From a virus: 64,000 nt of DNA. The notes under the pieces were generated by a model, which was given only the letters and a program-made list of their open reading frames with translations, was not told the DNA's origin and made no database searches. Both the position numbers and the translations under genes were made by a program. The DNA lies in the IMG/VR virus record IMGVR_UViG_3300010397_000043, positions 1 to 64,000 of that record; one strand, written 5' to 3'. The stretch's first letter is position 1. Each line of letters opens with the position of its first letter. Of this stretch, positions 2,925 to 64,000 are shown in pieces.

Positions 2925-3632
2925 TTAGGCGCTCCCAGCCGAGAAGGCGCTGATCGTGTGCTTCGTGAACGTATCGGACGAGCTACGCGAGAAGAACCCG
3001 ATGCCAGGGCTACCGCTCGTGATCTTGCCGGTCTGCGTGTCCGTGACCTGCCAGACCTGTGTGCTGTTCTTGAACACAGTCATCACAGGGCTACCGCTCG
3101 TGGCGTCGTAGACTACCTTGAGCACGTCGTTGTGCGCAAGGGTCGGGATTGACCCCGACAGCGTGGTGAACCCACTGGTCGTGAAGTCGCCCTGCGCGCC
3201 ATTCCAACGGGCGAGCAGAATCGTGCCATCGTAGATGACGTCGAATTCGTACCCCTTGGCGTTGCCCGACGCAATCGTGAAGCCGACAAGGCACTCGATC
3301 TCCAGCGAAGTGCTGGGTGGCGTGTACGCACCGTCAGGCCGGTTGCACTTGATCTGCGCGAAGTGCTTGTTAGCAGTGAACCGACCTTGGATCGTGGCGA
3401 TGTTGTCACTGTAGTCCGAAGGCGAAGCCGCCGTGGCATACGCTCCGTTGGTCGGGTCACAGCGCACGTTGTTCCAGCTACCACCAGTCGCCAGACCGTT
3501 GGTCCAGATACTGCCTTCGCTGATCGGGTTTTCCGTCACGGCGAACGTGGTCGAGTACGGGTCAAAGTTGCCCCCGCCCCCAGAGGCCGCGACGACCGTA
3601 TTCCGGTACATCAAAGAAGGAACGATGGACAT
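2925..3632 (-). CDS. Putative virion appendage/receptor-binding protein (lectin-like beta-sandwich)
   Basis: 235 aa, Ser/Thr/Gly-rich, beta-strand pattern ending GSPGIGFF; lies in the fibre operon. Confidence 0.55.
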   Translation of the reverse strand: MSIVPSLMYRNTVVAASGGGGNFDPYSTTFAVTENPISEGSIWTNGLATGGSWNNVRCDPTNGAYATAASPSDYSDNIATIQGRFTANKHFAQIKCNRPDGAYTPPSTSLEIECLVGFTIASGNAKGYEFDVIYDGTILLARWNGAQGDFTTSGFTTLSGSIPTLAHNDVLKVVYDATSGSPVMTVFKNSTQVWQVTDTQTGKITSGSPGIGFFSRSSSDTFTKHTISAFSAGSA

Positions 3633-8686: not shown

Positions 8687-11600
8687 TTAACCAAAGAAGA
8701 ACGACGGCACCCAGCCACCGCCGACCACAACGTAGCCAACGTCCTGCACGACGCCGCCTGCGACGAGGCGGATCGAAACCTTAAAGCCGTAGTTGAACAA
8801 CTGGCCCGAAGCGACGGTCGGTGCCACGGTCCAACGCAAGATGCCAAGCGTACCGAGGTTGAACCACGTGTTCAACGACGGGCCGGTCAGCGCGCCAGTG
8901 AACGTGCCAACGTCGCCGGTATACCCAGGCACCAGCGCGGCCTCAACCTTCACCTCGAAGCGTGCGGCAATGTCGGAGGTGATCGGCTTCTGGAGCAACC
9001 ACGCGGCCGGCACTTCCTCGATCACGTTGTTCGGGATTGGTGCTTCACCAGAGAACGGTTGTGGCAAGCCGCGCAGCCCATACATGGCCCCGTTTGGCCG
9101 AAGCTCAAAGCCCGCATACCGAGTCGCAAGCTCGGCGTCCGTAGGCCCGGCAATAGGATCGCTGCCCAGCGGATTGGTCGTTTGGTTGTAGCTGACCGTA
9201 GCGTCAAGGTTTACCGGCGCGTCGGGCAGGTTGACCTCGTAGAACGCATCGAAGTTGGGGTCGTCCGGGTCCGGCGTAAAGCCACCCCCGCCCCCACCAA
9301 GCACAGGCGTGGTGGGACCAGTGGGGTCAATGTTGCCGACGAACAGGTCTGCAGTATGCACGCGGTTGTCCTCGACCACAGCGACGATACCGATCTCTTC
9401 CATGCTCCGCGGCGTAATGCCCAGGATGCGGATGTTACGTGCGATGTTCGTGGACGGGCCGAAGCTGAACGCGGTGCGGTCGTAGTCACTACCCGTGTTG
9501 GGAAAGAAGCCATCGGTGAACGTCATCGAGGCGTGCACGTAGATGGTCATCGGCTCTGGGTGCGGGTAGGCCGGGTAAGGCCCCTGGTACTTGCCATCCT
9601 TCGTCTGGAACACGATGTAGTTCTGCCCAGCCTGGAAAGCCACAGGCTCGGACAACCGCATGGCGAACACCAGCGCGCCGCTGACCGTCACGGGCGGCTG
9701 GTTGATATCGAAGTACTCAACCTCGCCACGGTACGCCCCGAAGGCCGGCACGTCATGCGACAGCGCGCACAGGTCACCCAGAGCCGGGATGAAGCCATCC
9801 ATCTCGGTCGAGAATGAAACGACCTTGCGCCGGTACAGGTTCGCCGCCAGGGTGTAGTACGCCTCACGGGCCGCGTGCGAGCGCGTGGTGATGCCCGGCA
9901 TCTGCACCCGCTGAGGGTTTTGTGGCGGGGTATCGCTATTGAGCAGTAGCTTGGCGTTGCCCAGCGTGTAGTAATCCTCGGCCCACGTGTACCGGTTGAA
10001 GAACTGCACCTCGATACCATCGGGTGAGTCTTCGGTCGGGATGATGTATTCGAGGCTCAGCGAACCACGGTTGATATTCCGCGAGCTGAACAGCGTCACG
10101 GGCGTGGTCTGCTGTTCGTCGCGCACGAACGTAAACACGCCGCCTCGCATGAATCGAGTCGTGCGGGCGGTGCGGGCGATCAGGGCGAGCGCGTCCCAGG
10201 TGGTCGTGCGCTGGTCGAACACGTAGTCAAATTTGTCGCCGCGGATGTCGGCGTTCTGGGCTTCGCGCAGCAGGGCCAGCGTATCCACGCGGAAGCCCGG
10301 CACGTTGCCGCCATAGTCAACGTTGATGAGGCAGTCCAGCGCAGCCCAAGCCCAGTTGCGAGTCAGTACCGGCGCGCTCAGGCCAGTCACCGGGTTCCAG
10401 ATCGGCAGCTTGCGCTCGGCCAGCACGGCGATTCGCCGCTGAGACAAGCCATTCAACTGCTCGGAAGCCTTGATCGCTACAGCGATGTACGTGGCCCGGG
10501 GGTCCAGCGGCGCGGGCTGATCCAGGTAACAACGCAGCGCAGCCCAATTGACTTTATGCGCGGCCTTGATGTCGTTGATCATCTCGGTATCCATGCGCTT
10601 CACGCGCACTTCGTACCGGCCACTCGGCACACCGTACACCCAGGTCTGGCGAATAGGCGTGAAGCTCGCCGCCGCCTGCGTCTCGGTCGAGATGATGAAC
10701 CAGCCAGCGGTCGGGTTGCCGAACGTGTCCACTGGGCGGGCGTACACGCGCCACGAGATGCTTAGCGGCCCGATGCTGCCATCGTCAAACTGATAGCCGA
10801 TGCCAACCGGGAAGATGATGTCGAGGCTCAACACACTCGTGGTCAGCCCGCCGCCACAGGCGGTAAACGGGCCGATCATCGTGTCCGTGTGCAATTCCTG
10901 CCCGCTGACTTCGACTGCGGTCACCACATTCGGGTTCACCAGTGCGGTCACATCGGTCGGGCTACCGATAACGACCTGCACACCCTCAAAGTGGTCGATA
11001 CGCGTATCGTCGATGAACACGTTCGACATGAGGATTTGGTACTCGCCCATGCCGACGCACATGAGTGCGAAGTAGTATTGGTCGCCCGCGCTGTCGTAGA
11101 TAGAATACGGCTGTGCCGCGAAGTCGGGATAGGTGATGTGGCTCCCGTAGATCACAGGGATCGGGTTGTTCAGCTTTGCCGAGTTGCCTTGGAGCGCAAT
11201 GTCGTAGACGCTGCTGCCCGCCGTGCCAGTGGCCGAAGGCGTCGCGGGGTTGCGGATCGGCAGCGCAAGGTTGATGAGCGCGTTGCCAACGATGATGATG
11301 CCGATCTGCAGCAGTGCGGTCACCTGCGAGCCGGTCAGGCCAGCGGTAAAGCCGTTGAGGATCAGCTCGGGCGCGAACTCGGGTGCGAAGATCATGGCCG
11401 CTGCGATCACGACCAGTTGCAGGATCGTCCGCAGCGGGTTCGATCCGCCGGCCCCGCCGCCACCCTCGATCAGCTCGACAAAGCACACACGGTCGCCAGC
11501 AACCGGCGCGTAGTCCCAGTCTTCTTGCAGCACAGGCTCGCCGTCGAGCAGGCAAACCCGGCGCGGCGTGCGCGACTCCGCCGCCATCTGGCGGAGGGTC

Positions 11601-60187: not shown

Positions 60188-60781
60188 ATGGCAACCAAAA
60201 AGGAACGAGTTTCCCTGCAGACCCCGGTCGGCATTGCGACCTTTGTTCACGTGTTTGAACCACACGCCCACGACAACGACGACGGCGAGAAGAAGCAACC
60301 GATGTACTCGGTGATGCTGGTGTTCACGCCCGAGCAGAAGGACGACCTCAAGGAGCTTCGCCAGCAGTGCATCCGCGCCGCGAAGGCCTTCTTCGGCGAG
60401 CGGTACGAGAAGCTGAAGGAAAAGGGCAAGATGCGCTTCCCCTGGCGCGATGCCGGCGAGTACGAGGAGTATGGCGAGCCCTTCGTCGAGGGCAACACAA
60501 TGATCAACTTCAAGTCGAAGGACGAGCCGGGCGTGGTTGATGCGCGCGCCAAGCCGGTCATGGATCGCAAGGTGATCTTCCCGGGTATGGCCGCACGTGT
60601 GTCCTACGGAGTGTGGCCTTACGAGACGAAGGGCAACACCGGCGTGACCTTGTTCCTCAACAACTTGCAGAAGGCAGGAGATGGTATGGGCCGACTCGCG
60701 GGCCGTGCCGCTGCTGAAGACGAATTCGACGCTATCGAAGGTGCGGACGGTAGCGACGATGGAGATGACGACGAGATCTAA
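60188..60781 (+). CDS. ssb: Single-stranded DNA-binding protein (DUF2815/gp2.5-like)
   Basis: HVFEP, YSV, PWRD, GNTGVTLFLNNLQK; acidic tail. Confidence 0.88.
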   Translation: MATKKERVSLQTPVGIATFVHVFEPHAHDNDDGEKKQPMYSVMLVFTPEQKDDLKELRQQCIRAAKAFFGERYEKLKEKGKMRFPWRDAGEYEEYGEPFVEGNTMINFKSKDEPGVVDARAKPVMDRKVIFPGMAARVSYGVWPYETKGNTGVTLFLNNLQKAGDGMGRLAGRAAAEDEFDAIEGADGSDDGDDDEI

Positions 60782-60832
60782 AGTCGCTCAGTGCCGCCCA
60801 CAACTCAACTTATCCCTTACCTGGAGAACATC

Positions 60833-61291
60833 ATGGCAAAGAAGAATGCCCCTGCCGCCGAAAACAACGTGGACGATCTGCTCGCCGGTGGCGATGCCGA
60901 AGCGGCCCCCGCCGCGAAGCCCAAGGCCAAGAAGGCTGTGAAGGTCGAAGGCACCGACGAGGTCAAGCCCAAGGCGAAGGCCAAGCCCGAAGCCGCCGCC
61001 AAGCCGGCGAAGAAGGCCAGCAAGCCCAAGGCCGAGCCGGAAGCGAAGCCCGCCGCCAAGCCCAAGGCAAAGGCCAAGGGTGGCAAGCCCCGTGGCGAGC
61101 GTGCCGAGTCGCGCGTCGAGGACATCACGGCGGCGCTGCTGAAGGTCAAGAAGTCCACGAGCTATGAGGACCTCGCGGCCAAGGGTGGTTTCGACATCCG
61201 CGCTGTGCGTCGCACCGCCCGCAAGCTGCGTGACGACGGGCAGATCGGCCTCGAGAAGGAAGGCACCAAGGTCTACGTGACCGCTGCCTGA
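60833..61291 (+). CDS. Lys/Ala-rich DNA-binding protein with C-terminal winged helix
   Basis: KPKAKAKP repeats; SYEDLAAKGGFDIRAVRRTARKLRDDG. Confidence 0.7.
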   Translation: MAKKNAPAAENNVDDLLAGGDAEAAPAAKPKAKKAVKVEGTDEVKPKAKAKPEAAAKPAKKASKPKAEPEAKPAAKPKAKAKGGKPRGERAESRVEDITAALLKVKKSTSYEDLAAKGGFDIRAVRRTARKLRDDGQIGLEKEGTKVYVTAA

Positions 61292-61313
61292 CCGCAACAC
61301 CAAGGCAAGTATC

Positions 61314-61652
61314 GTGGAACTCAAACTTGGCTTGGTTCTTTCCAAGAGGGACAAGAGGAAACTCGAAGCCCTCGTTCACAGCTTCAATGAAAGGTTCGAT
61401 TCGATGTCCACTCAACTCGAAGCACTCGTCGCCCAGGTCCAAGCCACCAACGGCGTCATGGAATCGGCGGTCACGCTCATCAATGGCCTGCAGGCCCAAC
61501 TGGCACAGGTGCAGGCCGATCTGGCTGCACAGGGCGTGACCAACGCCCAACTGGACGCGCTGACCACTCAGCTCAACCAGGGCGACGACGCGCTGCAGGC
61601 CCTGCTCGCGGCGAACAGCCCGGCCCCCGCGCCGCCGCCGGCCCAGCCGTGA
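61314..61652 (+). CDS. Coiled-coil protein
   Basis: Gln/Ala/Leu heptads; start uncertain. Confidence 0.6.
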   Translation: MELKLGLVLSKRDKRKLEALVHSFNERFDSMSTQLEALVAQVQATNGVMESAVTLINGLQAQLAQVQADLAAQGVTNAQLDALTTQLNQGDDALQALLAANSPAPAPPPAQP

Positions 61653-61661
61653 AAGACCAAC

Positions 61662-61738
61662 GGCCACATAGCTCAATCTGGTAGAGCGTCGGTCTCCAAA
61701 ACCGAAGGTTGGGGGTTCAAGTCCCTCTGTGGTCGCCA
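61662..61738 (+). tRNA. tRNA-Trp(CCA)
   Basis: Canonical cloverleaf; TCGGT-CTCCAAA-ACCGA anticodon arm, GGTTCAAGTCC T arm, encoded CCA. Confidence 0.95.
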
Positions 61739-61742
61739 AGTT

Positions 61743-61958
61743 AGGAGGGTTCTTTGTTGGGCAGTAGCTCAGGGGTCTGTGGAGGTACGGTGGAGGGAAC
61801 GCCATCGGTGACCACAGAGGCAGGCGGAAAGGTGTAGTCGGTGATCGGGCAAGGACCACCCACGATGCCGGCATCGCCGAGTAGCATGCCTAGAGCGGCT
61901 GGTATATAACCAGAGGGTCGTTGGTTCGATTCCAACCTGCCCCACAAAGAATCCTCCT
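61743..61958 (+). ncRNA. tRNA-scaffolded ncRNA with a ~115-nt structured insertion in the D-loop and an extended acceptor stem
   Basis: GGGCAG-TA-GCTC...GAGC, CTGG-TATATAA-CCAG, GTTGG-TTCGATT-CCAAC-CTGCCC; flanks pair for 15 more bp. Confidence 0.75.
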
Positions 61959-61968
61959 TAAAGCCGAA

Positions 61969-62000
61969 GCCGGCTGGCAACCCCAGCCGGTTTTTCTTTT
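61969..62000 (+). terminator. Intrinsic terminator after the RNA genes
   Basis: GCCGGCTGG/CCAGCCGGT stem followed by TTTTCTTTT. Confidence 0.85.
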
Positions 62001-62017
62001 GTACCTGCGAATCCATC

Positions 62018-64000
62018 ATGGCCCTGGACCTCGACTTCGAGACTTTCTGCGAGCTGAACGTCCGCACGGTGGGCGCGTACCGGTACGCCAGCCACCCAAG
62101 CTGTGAAGTGCTGGTGTTGTGCTACTCCATTGACAACGGGCCGGTGCGCCGCTGGGTGCCCTACGCCGATGGCCCGGACGCACCCCCGCGCCCGCTGCCC
62201 AGGGCCCTGCGCCGCTACATCGAGGACACCGATGGTGAGCTGATCGCGCACAACAGCCAGTTTGAAATGTGCATCTGGCATTACGTGATGGAGCGGCTGC
62301 ACGATGCCCCGCCCATCGCGCCGCATCGATGGGTATGCACTGCGGCCATGGCGGCGGCATGCGGCTTGCCCCGTAGCCTGGACGGTGCAGCGATGGCGAT
62401 GCAGTTGCAGCACCAGAAGAACAAGGAAGGCGCACGACTGCTCAACATCTTCGCCAAGCCGCGCAAGCCCACGAAGCTGAACAAGGCGACCCGCACCTAC
62501 CCCTGGGACCGGCCCGACGAATTCGAGAAGCTGTGCGAGTACTGCGAGGACGACGTTCGTGCCGAGGCCGAGCTTTATGAGCGCCTGCCGAAGCTGTCCA
62601 AGTACGAGCGCCGGGTGTTCGCCAAAGATATTGAGATGAACAGCCGTGGCCTGCCGCTGGACGTGCGGGCCGTGAAGACCGGGTTTCGCCTGCTGACCGA
62701 ACTGGAGCGGCGGAACAAGAACCGTGTCGAGCAGTTGACCGGCGGTATACGTGCCACGCAGCGCGACAAGATGCTGGAGCATTTCAAGTCGCTGGGCGTC
62801 GAACTGGAAAACCTGCAGGCCAAGACGATCCGCGACCTGATTACGGCCCAGAAGGAAATACTGCCTGACGCGGCGGTCGAGCTACTGCTGCTGCGGATCG
62901 AGGGCGGCAAGGCTTCGACCAAGAAGCTGAAGAAGATGCTGGAGGTCATGCTCAAAGACGGGCGTGTCCGAGGTGCCTTCCTGTACTGGGGTGCGCACTG
63001 TGTACCCGGGGATACCGAAGTGCTGACCCGTAGCGGCTGGGTGCCTATCAAAGACTGGGATGGCAAGAGTGAGATCGCGCAAGTAAACGAGCAACTCGAA
63101 ACACAGTTCTTGCCCGGCAAGAAATTTGTCGGCCCAGTAGCAGATCGCTGGCTTCAAGTACGAACGGAGATGTTTACGGGGGACTTTACGCTCGGGCACA
63201 CGATGCCATACTTCCATAAACACAACGGTTCCTTCCAGTATGAAAAAGCTGGTGTGTTCGCCACTCGGGCCCGTCGCAGTGTCCCCGTATCTACTGTTAT
63301 GCCTAGCACCGGTGCGTTGAACGCAGTGCAGATGCGTGTGCTAACAATGGTCCAGGCCGATGGGCACTTCGCCAAAGGCAAGAACCAGGGCATGCTCCTC
63401 TTTACGTTCAAAAAAGAACGGAAGATCGAACGCTGTCAGAAACTTCTTGCGGAAGCTGGTATACCGTGTCGGGTGCGTGGCCCATACGCGAGCGGCAACG
63501 TGGCTGTGAAGATAAGCCGAAAAGACGTTCCGCATTGGCTAACCGAAGAACGTAAATCGTTTGGCCCATGGGTACTTGATAGTACCCCTGCGGCTCGACT
63601 TGCATTGATCGAAGAGGCAGCGTTCTGGGATGGATGTACCGACCCGCGCAACGAGTTCTTTTCGTACAGCTATTCAACTACGGACCCTGTAAGTGCCGAG
63701 TGGCTGCAGACGGTAGCGCATTTGACTGGGTACAGGTCTTCAATTACGATGCGTGATCGCGGACGCGAAGGCTGGAAGGATTCCTATCGAGTACATGTCT
63801 GGCAAGGTAATAGTGCTGACGTCCGTGAACATCACATGGCTGTTGTTACCGAAAGGCGTAAGACGTACTGCGCAGAAACGCAGACTGGGTATTGGCTTGC
63901 TAGACACAACGGTCATATATTCGTTACTGGGAATACGGGCCGGTACGCCGGCAAGCTAATCCAGCCGCAGAACTTCACGCGCGGCGAGTACACGCCGTAT
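62018..64000 (+). CDS. polA: Family A DNA polymerase (intein-containing, truncated by window end)
   Basis: LDFET and AHNSQFE exonuclease motifs, LPRSLD, YCEDDV, MNSRG, YWGAH/TGRYAGKLIQPQN. Confidence 0.93.
   Translation, partial: MALDLDFETFCELNVRTVGAYRYASHPSCEVLVLCYSIDNGPVRRWVPYADGPDAPPRPLPRALRRYIEDTDGELIAHNSQFEMCIWHYVMERLHDAPPIAPHRWVCTAAMAAACGLPRSLDGAAMAMQLQHQKNKEGARLLNIFAKPRKPTKLNKATRTYPWDRPDEFEKLCEYCEDDVRAEAELYERLPKLSKYERRVFAKDIEMNSRGLPLDVRAVKTGFRLLTELERRNKNRVEQLTGGIRATQRDKMLEHFKSLGVELENLQAKTIRDLITAQKEILPDAAVELLLLRIEGGKASTKKLKKMLEVMLKDGRVRGAFLYWGAHCVPGDTEVLTRSGWVPIKDWDGKSEIAQVNEQLETQFLPGKKFVGPVADRWLQVRTEMFTGDFTLGHTMPYFHKHNGSFQYEKAGVFATRARRSVPVSTVMPSTGALNAVQMRVLTMVQADGHFAKGKNQGMLLFTFKKERKIERCQKLLAEAGIPCRVRGPYASGNVAVKISRKDVPHWLTEERKSFGPWVLDSTPAARLALIEEAAFWDGCTDPRNEFFSYSYSTTDPVSAEWLQTVAHLTGYRSSITMRDRGREGWKDSYRVHVWQGNSADVREHHMAVVTERRKTYCAETQTGYWLARHNGHIFVTGNTGRYAGKLIQPQNFTRGEYTPY
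62999..63934 (+). mobile_element. Intein with LAGLIDADG homing endonuclease (312 aa)
   Basis: Starts CVPGDTEVLTRSGW, ends FVTGN followed by +1 Thr; MVQADG and AFWDG motifs; lower GC than flanks. Confidence 0.92.

Follow-up and report, generated by a model that had tools for sequence, protein, structure and literature searches.

Comparison with described RNAs

The phage T4 RNAs rnaC (species 1) and rnaD (species 2) are encoded in a tRNA gene cluster, and their function is still unknown (PMC9697503; what is said here of articles cited by PMC number refers to parts of those articles). They are the closest described objects to the element reported here, which occupies positions 61743-61958 of a 64,000-nt stretch of DNA (the window, positions 1 to 64,000) in IMG/VR record IMGVR_UViG_3300010397_000043, an uncultured phage of 87.5 kb with 61% G+C and an estimated completeness of 84%. 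By its predicted fold, the element is a tRNA-Ile(UAU)-type cloverleaf with a large insert in the D loop, and like the T4 RNAs it is a phage RNA gene beside a tRNA gene. When folded here, rnaC gave a stem resembling an acceptor and a canonical T arm, with a hairpin of ~60 nt in the place of the D arm; it has neither a D stem nor a 7-nt anticodon loop, whereas the window element has a full cloverleaf and carries its domain within the D loop. No Rfam match connects rnaC with the element; the two were compared by eye, not by alignment, and share only the 8-mer CGAGTAGC, which was found in the window insert, in L088 (one of the related loci described below, which carry our own numbers) and in rnaC. 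This 8-mer is unproven as a link because its helix contexts differ.

tRNAs are among the most constrained molecules. Sequence comparison indicates that the element very probably belongs to a class of tRNA genes with D-loop inserts, and this class is real and apparently undescribed. It consists of recurrent phage genes in which the whole tRNA core is kept and a domain of 50-130 nt is added in the D loop, one subclass being without U33; at present all of these genes are missed by annotation pipelines.

Among interrupted tRNA genes, those of Lak megaphages are similar in being phage genes broken by short inserts without a recognised ribozyme (PMC6784885). The Lak introns were apparently predicted by tRNAscan with eukaryote settings (PMC6784885), which we take to mean the anticodon-loop position, whereas the inserts of the present class sit in the D loop and have 64-128 nt. 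Interruption of a tRNA gene within the D arm or D loop is established only for archaeal introns at non-canonical positions (PMC3241643). Unlike archaeal bulge-helix-bulge introns, the window insert opens at both junctions straight into hairpins, and there is no 4-bp helix with 3-nt bulges. Group I introns in tRNA genes are inserted in the anticodon loop, contain a P1-P9 core and have about 200 nt or more; the window insert differs in its D-loop position and its 115 nt, and gave no Intron_gpI match at E <= 10.

Transfer-messenger RNA (tmRNA) and YrlA also contain tRNA-like modules in larger stable RNAs, and the 5' and 3' ends of YrlA form a long stem. tmRNA has a tRNA-like domain without an anticodon arm, a G3.U70 pair and a tag reading frame; the window element has an anticodon arm and G-C at 3:70, and the tmRNA search of ARAGORN found none. 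The lone match to YrlA (RF02553, 14.8 bits) fell on the D arm of the neighbouring tRNA-Trp, not on the element, and no Ro/TROVE gene was found in the phage record. An earlier note, made from the letters of the window, had already held that neither RNA fits; both identities are excluded by the ARAGORN and Rfam results together with the missing TROVE gene. Engineered tRNA scaffolds and aptamer-tagged tRNAs resemble the element in that a foreign folded RNA is placed on a tRNA body; there the insert takes the place of the anticodon arm or the variable arm (PMC7590224), whereas the window's is natural and lies in the D loop.

Structure of the element

The acceptor stem GGGCAG/CTGCCC forms 6 of the 7 pairs of a canonical tRNA, position 1:72 being a U.C mismatch. 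The D stem GCTC/GAGC is paired at 4/4 positions, the anticodon stem at 4/5 and the T arm GTTGG-TTCGATT-CCAAC at 5/5, and the tertiary-contact bases are complete (U8, A14, G15/C48, G18 G19, A21, G22/G46, G53-C61, T54-A58 and C56). The D loop has 122 nt compared with ~7-11 nt in a canonical tRNA, and is composed of AGGGG, the insert of ~115 nt and (T)A, with A14 and A21 kept. The anticodon loop TATATAA, assigned as U32 A33 U34 A35 U36 A37 A38, has 7 nt and A37, but A33 instead of U33. CCA is not encoded, and the acceptor is extended by 15 bp, one G.U pair included. The stems, the odd anticodon loop, the absent CCA and the extension had all been read by the earlier note and were found as it described them, as was the position between tRNA-Trp (ARAGORN, Rfam) and a terminator (a terminator-like hairpin with a T run). 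The D-loop insert it placed at 61774-61888 is present, with limits better set at 61776-61891. Two of its insert helices were checked pair by pair: TCGGTGAT/ATCGCCGA pairs at 8/8 positions with one G.U, and GGCAGGC/GCATGCC pairs at 6/7 with one G.A. The coordinates of all parts are given in Table 1.

The whole 216 nt have a predicted folding energy of -102 kcal/mol (z = -5.3), a stability reached by none of 200 shuffles; the duplex of leader and trailer has -23.5 kcal/mol, which was equalled by none of 200 shuffled trailers. Inspection by eye revealed no convincing kissing contact between the tips of the insert hairpins (at most GGG/CCC or GGUGG/CCACC) and no convincing second anticodon-like loop within the insert.

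ARAGORN did not call the native element with the intron option on or off, whereas in-silico removal of 113-115 nt led to a call of tRNA-Ile(tat) with its 5' end at 61758 in 6 of 6 variants. Rfam did not call the element at the gathering score. In a permissive Rfam scan the element gave only a partial match to the tRNA family, with 20.5 bits over 61880-61938 (the 3' two-thirds), below the gathering score of 29, and no ribozyme, intron, tmRNA or YrlA family matched the element at E <= 10; a strong match to a known family was thus not obtained.

Table 1. Coordinates of the element and its flanking features in the window (MFE, minimum free energy fold)
Feature	Position	Strand	Basis
tRNA-Trp(CCA), CCA encoded, G73	61662-61738	+	ARAGORN; Rfam RF00005, 70.7 bits
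5' strand of the 15-bp leader-trailer stem prolonging the acceptor	61743-61757	+	sequence; MFE; duplex energy
Acceptor 5' strand; 61759-61764 pair with 61937-61942, U61758 opposite C61943	61758-61764	+	
U8 A9, D-stem 5' strand GCTC, A14 G15, G18 G19 (AGGGG)	61765-61775	+	
Insert hairpin H1: outer CTGTGG/CCACAG, internal loop, inner CGGTGG/CCATCG	61777-61817	+	MFE with and without cloverleaf constraints
Insert hairpin H2, long and irregular: base (A)GGCA.GC/GC.TGCC(T), inner TCGGTGAT/ATCGCCGA	61818-61891	+	MFE
A21 and D-stem 3' strand GAGC	61892-61896	+	sequence
G26 and anticodon arm: stem GCTGG/CCAGA (G27.A43 mismatch), loop TATATAA at 61903-61909	61897-61914	+	
Variable loop GGGTC and T arm GTTGG-TTCGATT-CCAAC	61915-61936	+	sequence; partial Rfam tRNA match
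Acceptor 3' strand CTGCCCC and A73, CCA absent after it	61937-61944	+	sequence
3' strand of the leader-trailer stem	61944-61958	+	sequence; MFE
Intrinsic-terminator-like hairpin and T run (hairpin/T run called at 61966-61994)	61966-62000	+	sequence

Related genes in other phages

Exact 19-nt and 23-nt strings of the element had 0 matches in viral contigs. BLAST against cultured phages returned 295 matching records, and among the 40 matches listed only query positions 15-104, the tRNA-Trp, were covered. Through synteny of the DNA polymerase gene we obtained 81 loci (best 58% identity); the element was in none of them, and the best blastn match beyond the window's own DNA was 23 nt long (E = 0.01). 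Relatives were revealed by pattern scans. Because each scan required GCTC/GAGC, the commonest D stem, together with the T loop GGTTCGANTCC, the family counts are lower bounds.

A pattern of D arm, 100-130-nt gap and T arm with the anticodon loop left free found three stretches. Two were neighbouring tRNAs within arrays and one was a true relative, L085 (L085:4103-4300), in a 350-kb phage contig. It has the same architecture as the window element, with an insert of ~126 nt and a UCU anticodon, and is identical to it at 24 of 27 unconstrained positions, including A33 and G27.A43. Its acceptor is decayed, with only 4/7 pairs, and an 8-nt direct repeat, GTACTAAC, is located at the start of the insert and again past the T arm. 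An HNH-like open reading frame (ORF), recognised by eye, lies downstream of the L085 gene.

With an A33-loop pattern, 12 loci were found in viral contigs, and 4 of them have D-loop inserts of 109-126 nt. Narrowed to T-A-T-N-T-A-A, the pattern found 18 loci in metagenome contigs: in 10 of these (6 distinct sequences) all 7 acceptor pairs form across an insert of 64-128 nt, and the other 8 comprise one homologue cut by a contig end, three loci without a 5' half and four with ordinary D loops. In a collection with one genome for each of ~185,000 prokaryote species the A33 pattern gave 13 loci and no convincing D-loop insert (9 ordinary D loops, 3 without a 5' half and 1 weak parse). These scans cannot give the rate at which A33 accompanies an insert. 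We set aside L104 (= L113), L109, L116, L119 and L120, which have no 5' half, L112, which is cut by a contig end, and L126, which has a D stem of only 3/4 and no U8 A9. L122, L124 and L125 are tRNA genes of ordinary length with the loop TATGTAA (A33, UGU) in contigs of bacterial metagenome-assembled genomes, from a Flavobacteriales bacterium, 'Candidatus Gallibacteroides' and Octadecabacter.

A pattern with an unconstrained anticodon loop and a D-loop gap of 45-75 nt gave 67 loci. The acceptor has at least 6/7 pairs in 31 of them, representing 28 distinct sequences, and the 36 loci below this value were set aside. Five of the 28 are ordinary tRNAs after a duplicated 5' fragment and were also removed, leaving 23 candidates. 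At L131, L137, L143, L144 and L185 a copy of the first ~15 nt of the tRNA itself (acceptor and start of the D arm) lies ~50 nt upstream; such duplicated fragments are rearrangement scars able to pass for D-loop inserts.

One member is carried by a cultured phage, Lactobacillus phage Lb (NC_047983.1, 21170-21299, minus strand; L197:1501-1630). This unannotated gene of 130 nt is 90% identical to L146 over 130 nt, is tRNA(GAU)-like with a 62-nt D-loop insert, and is located between DUF722 and DUF2829 genes, with the terminase small-subunit gene just beyond. L088 and L183 matched cultured phages in the tRNA body only. A CUA-anticodon (amber-reading) tRNA adjoins the A33 D-loop-insert gene at two loci (L098:354-429 and L105:7425-7500). 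In L156 (2074-2190) a hairpin of the insert has the loop TTGATCA, which is like a GAU anticodon loop, and the main anticodon loop is CTGAGAC; the hairpin could be a second, pseudo-anticodon arm. The large-phage arrays that contain D-loop-insert genes also hold tRNA genes of 125-151 nt with inserts of ~50-75 nt in the anticodon-arm region (L087:9495-9620, 9679-9805, 949-1073 and 3336-3474; L095:4666-4816).

No Rfam family covers tRNA genes with D-loop inserts. In the main texts searched we found no description of large D-loop inserts or of A33 in phage tRNAs: the terms U33, position 33, position 32, D-loop and insertion do not occur in an eLife paper on anticodon-loop mutations of phage tRNAs, and a 2020 review of non-canonical tRNAs mentions 'phage' 0 times. 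The earlier note had proposed an undescribed class of tRNA mimics or a tRNA with an excisable element. This is supported in part: the architecture does recur outside any Rfam family, and the decoy and scaffold roles it offered are hypothetical.

Pairs changed on both sides were found in three insert types other than the window's. Five such pairs separate L098 and L105 (3 in the acceptor, 2 in the insert), seven were found among L133, L146 and L156 (3 of them in the insert), and nine between L103 and L183 (6 in the insert, 2 in the acceptor and 1 in the T stem). These compensatory changes indicate that selection on the fold acts across the insert in the relatives; they are support and not statistics, because the comparisons use two or three sequences.

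These relatives bear on whether the element is a dead or dying tRNA gene, broken by insertion or rearrangement. Its defects (U1.C72, G27.A43, A33 and the missing CCA) fit with such a gene, as do an insert without relatives whose fold is not exceptional, the decay of L085, its nearest architectural twin, in acceptor pairing and in the direct repeat flanking the insert, and the rearranged fragments held in phage tRNA regions (duplicated 5' pieces in 5/28 distinct sequences). However, G27.A43, G26 and A33 are common to the relatives and are not random damage, the tertiary-contact bases and T-arm pairs are all kept, relatives with homologous inserts keep the acceptor paired by compensatory change, and an intact 15-bp closing stem is unlikely in decaying DNA (0/200 shuffles). 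We consider a dead gene quite improbable. The element is probably a working, non-standard tRNA relative, because similar genes recur in other phages.

Insert placement and anticodon loop

The acceptor and D stems are paired across D-loop inserts of at least 45 nt, with 6/7 and 4/4 pairs in the window and 7/7 and 4/4 in the relatives. Short inserts are mostly located before G18-G19. Inserts of at least 105 nt lie directly after G19, with A14 and A21 intact, in 8 of 8 genes (the window, L085, L087, L088, L095, L097, L098 and L105). All known long-insert genes have A33, with the anticodon UUU, UCU or, in the window, UAU, and in the A33 set the anticodon most often found is UUU (Lys). Most of these genes were found by requiring A33, which does not hold for the window and L085. 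Among tRNAs called by ARAGORN in the loci of the anticodon-free scan, A33 occurs in 1/343 and U33 in 331/343; because the window and L085 have A33 unasked, the link between long insert and A33 looks real, resting on two unbiased cases. D-loop inserts as such are a wider feature of phage tRNAs and are not tied to A33, because many candidates carry U33.

The A33 subclass has the loop T-A-N-N-T-A-A, which is TATATAA in the window and TATTTAA or TATCTAA in the relatives. G26, G27.A43, GGGTC and TTCGATT are common to the window, L085, L095 and L097. L103 and L183 have G26, G27.A43 and the anticodon stem as in the window, but CGGTC; L183 further has the T loop TTCGAGT, and the same UAU anticodon as the window with a normal U33. 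The inserts belong to unrelated sequence types, and the window insert matches none of them. A closing stem was found in 2 of 18 genes examined, the window and L155, and the other 16 were no better than shuffles, so the long closing stem that the earlier note had counted as part of the design is not a feature of the class. The 15-bp stem and U1.C72 are peculiar to the window copy. In the 87.5-kb record the 15-bp inverted repeat occurs as its own two arms only; reading it as a miniature inverted-repeat transposable element was dropped, there being no further copies.

The intact cloverleaf and tertiary bases would also suit a tRNA-Ile(UAU) that keeps the domain and still translates, A33 and the elbow domain making it resistant to host tRNA nucleases. 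Phage tRNAs that escape cleavage through changes of the anticodon stem-loop are established (PMC11464382), and the D loop takes up the inserts in its two pockets of variable length, either ahead of G18 or behind G19. Yet U33 is near-universal (331/343 phage tRNAs), engineered tRNAs with added hairpins or aptamers are mostly inactive (PMC7590224), and an elbow domain of ~115 nt would be expected to collide with the ribosomal elbow contacts, judging from established ribosome structure; moreover, the window copy has no CCA, paired ends and a mismatched 1:72. A resistant decoder of this kind seems hardly likely to us.

Retention or removal of the insert

We tentatively favour an RNA in which the domain is retained and which does not decode, an interpretation that, taken in full, is possible and still short of probable. 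The element would be transcribed with tRNA-Trp from the upstream replication-gene operon and would fold into an L whose elbow bears the extra domain, which would not be removed. Lacking the U-turn base and having a bulky elbow, it would take no part in decoding at the ribosome. It may instead occupy some tRNA-binding factor as a stable mimic of a tRNA; the most likely target would be a host enzyme by which tRNAs of the NNU-A37 type (Lys, Arg, Ile) are attacked or handled. The 15-bp closing stem with U1.C72 may seal the ends or guide end-processing.

Several observations are consistent with a retained domain. Of the 5 loci having at least 9 called tRNAs, 3 (L087, L088 and L101) also have a canonical U33 tRNA with the same anticodon within the array, so the odd copy appears to be the extra one. 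tRNAs fused to aptamer hairpins usually lose their translational activity (PMC7590224). Neither RtcB nor an Rnl2-type or Rnl1-type RNA ligase was found in the phage record (84% complete). Two small phages that carry genes of this kind and whose sequences are complete, Lactobacillus phage Lb and one of 46 kb bounded by terminal repeats, likewise showed no RNA ligase; in a phage of 359 kb, two kinds were found.

Other observations weigh against this interpretation. The same-anticodon canonical tRNA was not seen in the sequence examined of the L097 and L085 arrays (2/5), and no canonical tRNA-Ile(UAU) was found in this phage record. The ligase searches covered phage DNA only, and a host RtcB could act. 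The G18-G19 beside the insert would be needed by an intron-bearing tRNA too, and therefore does not discriminate. The insert alone has an unexceptional fold (z = -1.5; 15/200 shuffles as good); it has no homologue in any scan, and no covariation supports its helices for that reason, so that the search for homologues brought relatives and compensatory pairs in three other insert types and none for the window's. At position 33, 12 of the 16 parsable genes among the 23 candidates have U, three have C and one has A (the other 7 were excluded for a poor anticodon stem in the fixed register). Many D-loop-insert genes with normal U33 and CCA ends look like decoders, and because of these genes excision or tolerance of the insert fits better than mimicry.

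If the insert were intron-like, nucleases and an RNA ligase (e.g. RtcB) would excise ~115 nt and leave a ~73-nt tRNA-Ile(UAU) reading the rare codon AUA. AUA is indeed rare in this phage (59 codons in 95 crude ORFs, 2.4 per 1000), and the exons alone give a cloverleaf accepted by ARAGORN. Canonical anticodon loops and CCA ends in many relatives point in the same direction, as do the tRNA genes with ~50-nt anticodon-arm inserts in the same large phages and the 'enigmatic' tRNA introns of Lak megaphages (PMC6784885). Against excision, there was no match to group I or any other ribozyme, inspection of the fold found no bulge-helix-bulge at the junctions, and a ligase was found neither in the record nor in 2/2 complete small phages with such genes; the spliced product would still be crippled by A33. 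A contig of the only sequencing run listed for the record, a DNA run labelled soil metagenome, covers the element with 0 differences, 0 indels and 0 joints, and among the contigs of the probable source soil sample (assembled contigs only) there was no insert-free DNA form. No protein-dependent tRNA splicing is known in bacteria, which also counts against excision. We regard excision as unlikely; if the domain is removed, bacteria or phages possess a tRNA splicing route not yet shown, and if it stays in place, the class provides natural examples of tRNA scaffolds or look-alikes and could bear on the conflict of phage and host over tRNAs.

A more specific version of the retained, non-decoding RNA can be proposed, in which the A33 paralogues with an elbow domain of 100-130 nt, found here in phage and metagenome contigs only, serve as stable, uncleavable baits or adaptors that neutralise host enzymes acting against Lys/Arg/Ile-type tRNAs. 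Such a role is plausible because phages are known to counter defences that cut tRNAs with variant tRNAs resistant to cleavage (PMC11464382); judged from the sequences in hand, it is speculative and on balance doubtful. The T5 tRNA-Lys that neutralises PARIS/AriB is a normal-sized working tRNA with stem changes (PMC11464382); like the A33 genes it is an extra phage copy with an anticodon stem-loop unlike the host form, whereas it has neither A33 nor a D-loop domain. If the bait or adaptor role is true, the element would represent a new kind of anti-defence RNA.

Genomic neighbourhood

The element starts after a gap of 4 nt from the end of tRNA-Trp. No sigma-70-like promoter was found in 60700-62300, so the element is probably on the same transcript as tRNA-Trp. 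Upstream lies a replication module composed of an exonuclease, a Gp2.5-like single-strand-binding protein and two small ORFs, followed by tRNA-Trp. The transcription unit would end at the terminator-like hairpin. The family A DNA polymerase gene lies 3' of it, starting at 62018, and its ORF ends at 64942 in the genome; the nearest relative of this polymerase is from a Rhodoferax phage. The host is bacterial in style, as seen from G73 and CCA on tRNA-Trp, the intrinsic terminator and the Rhodoferax-phage-like polymerase.

Located at the 3' end of a replication-gene operon, between tRNA-Trp and the terminator, the element might also act in cis, as a stable end structure that protects the transcript or directs cutting by RNase P or RNase III, for which its near-continuous helix of 22 bp may be a plausible RNase III substrate. 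The relatives, however, lie inside tRNA arrays without a closing stem (16/18 no better than shuffles), and a terminator hairpin is already present downstream; we regard a cis-acting structure as most improbable.

The minus-strand ORFs 61146-61874 and 61741-62067 had no PHROG match. A small ORF of 26-27 aa, with its start at 61754/61757, is preceded by AGGAGG; the RNA reading accounts for this region. The DNA polymerase contains an insert of ~310 aa that starts with CVPGDTEV and is absent from 24 homologues; given the LAGLIDADG_3 match at aa 440-489, an intein bearing a homing endonuclease is its probable identity. Stop codon usage in the 95 crude ORFs was TGA 39 (the commonest), TAA 30 and TAG 26. 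Outside the window, at positions 79911-79986 of the record, ARAGORN called a 'tRNA-SeC(tca)' of 76 nt that may instead be an opal suppressor.

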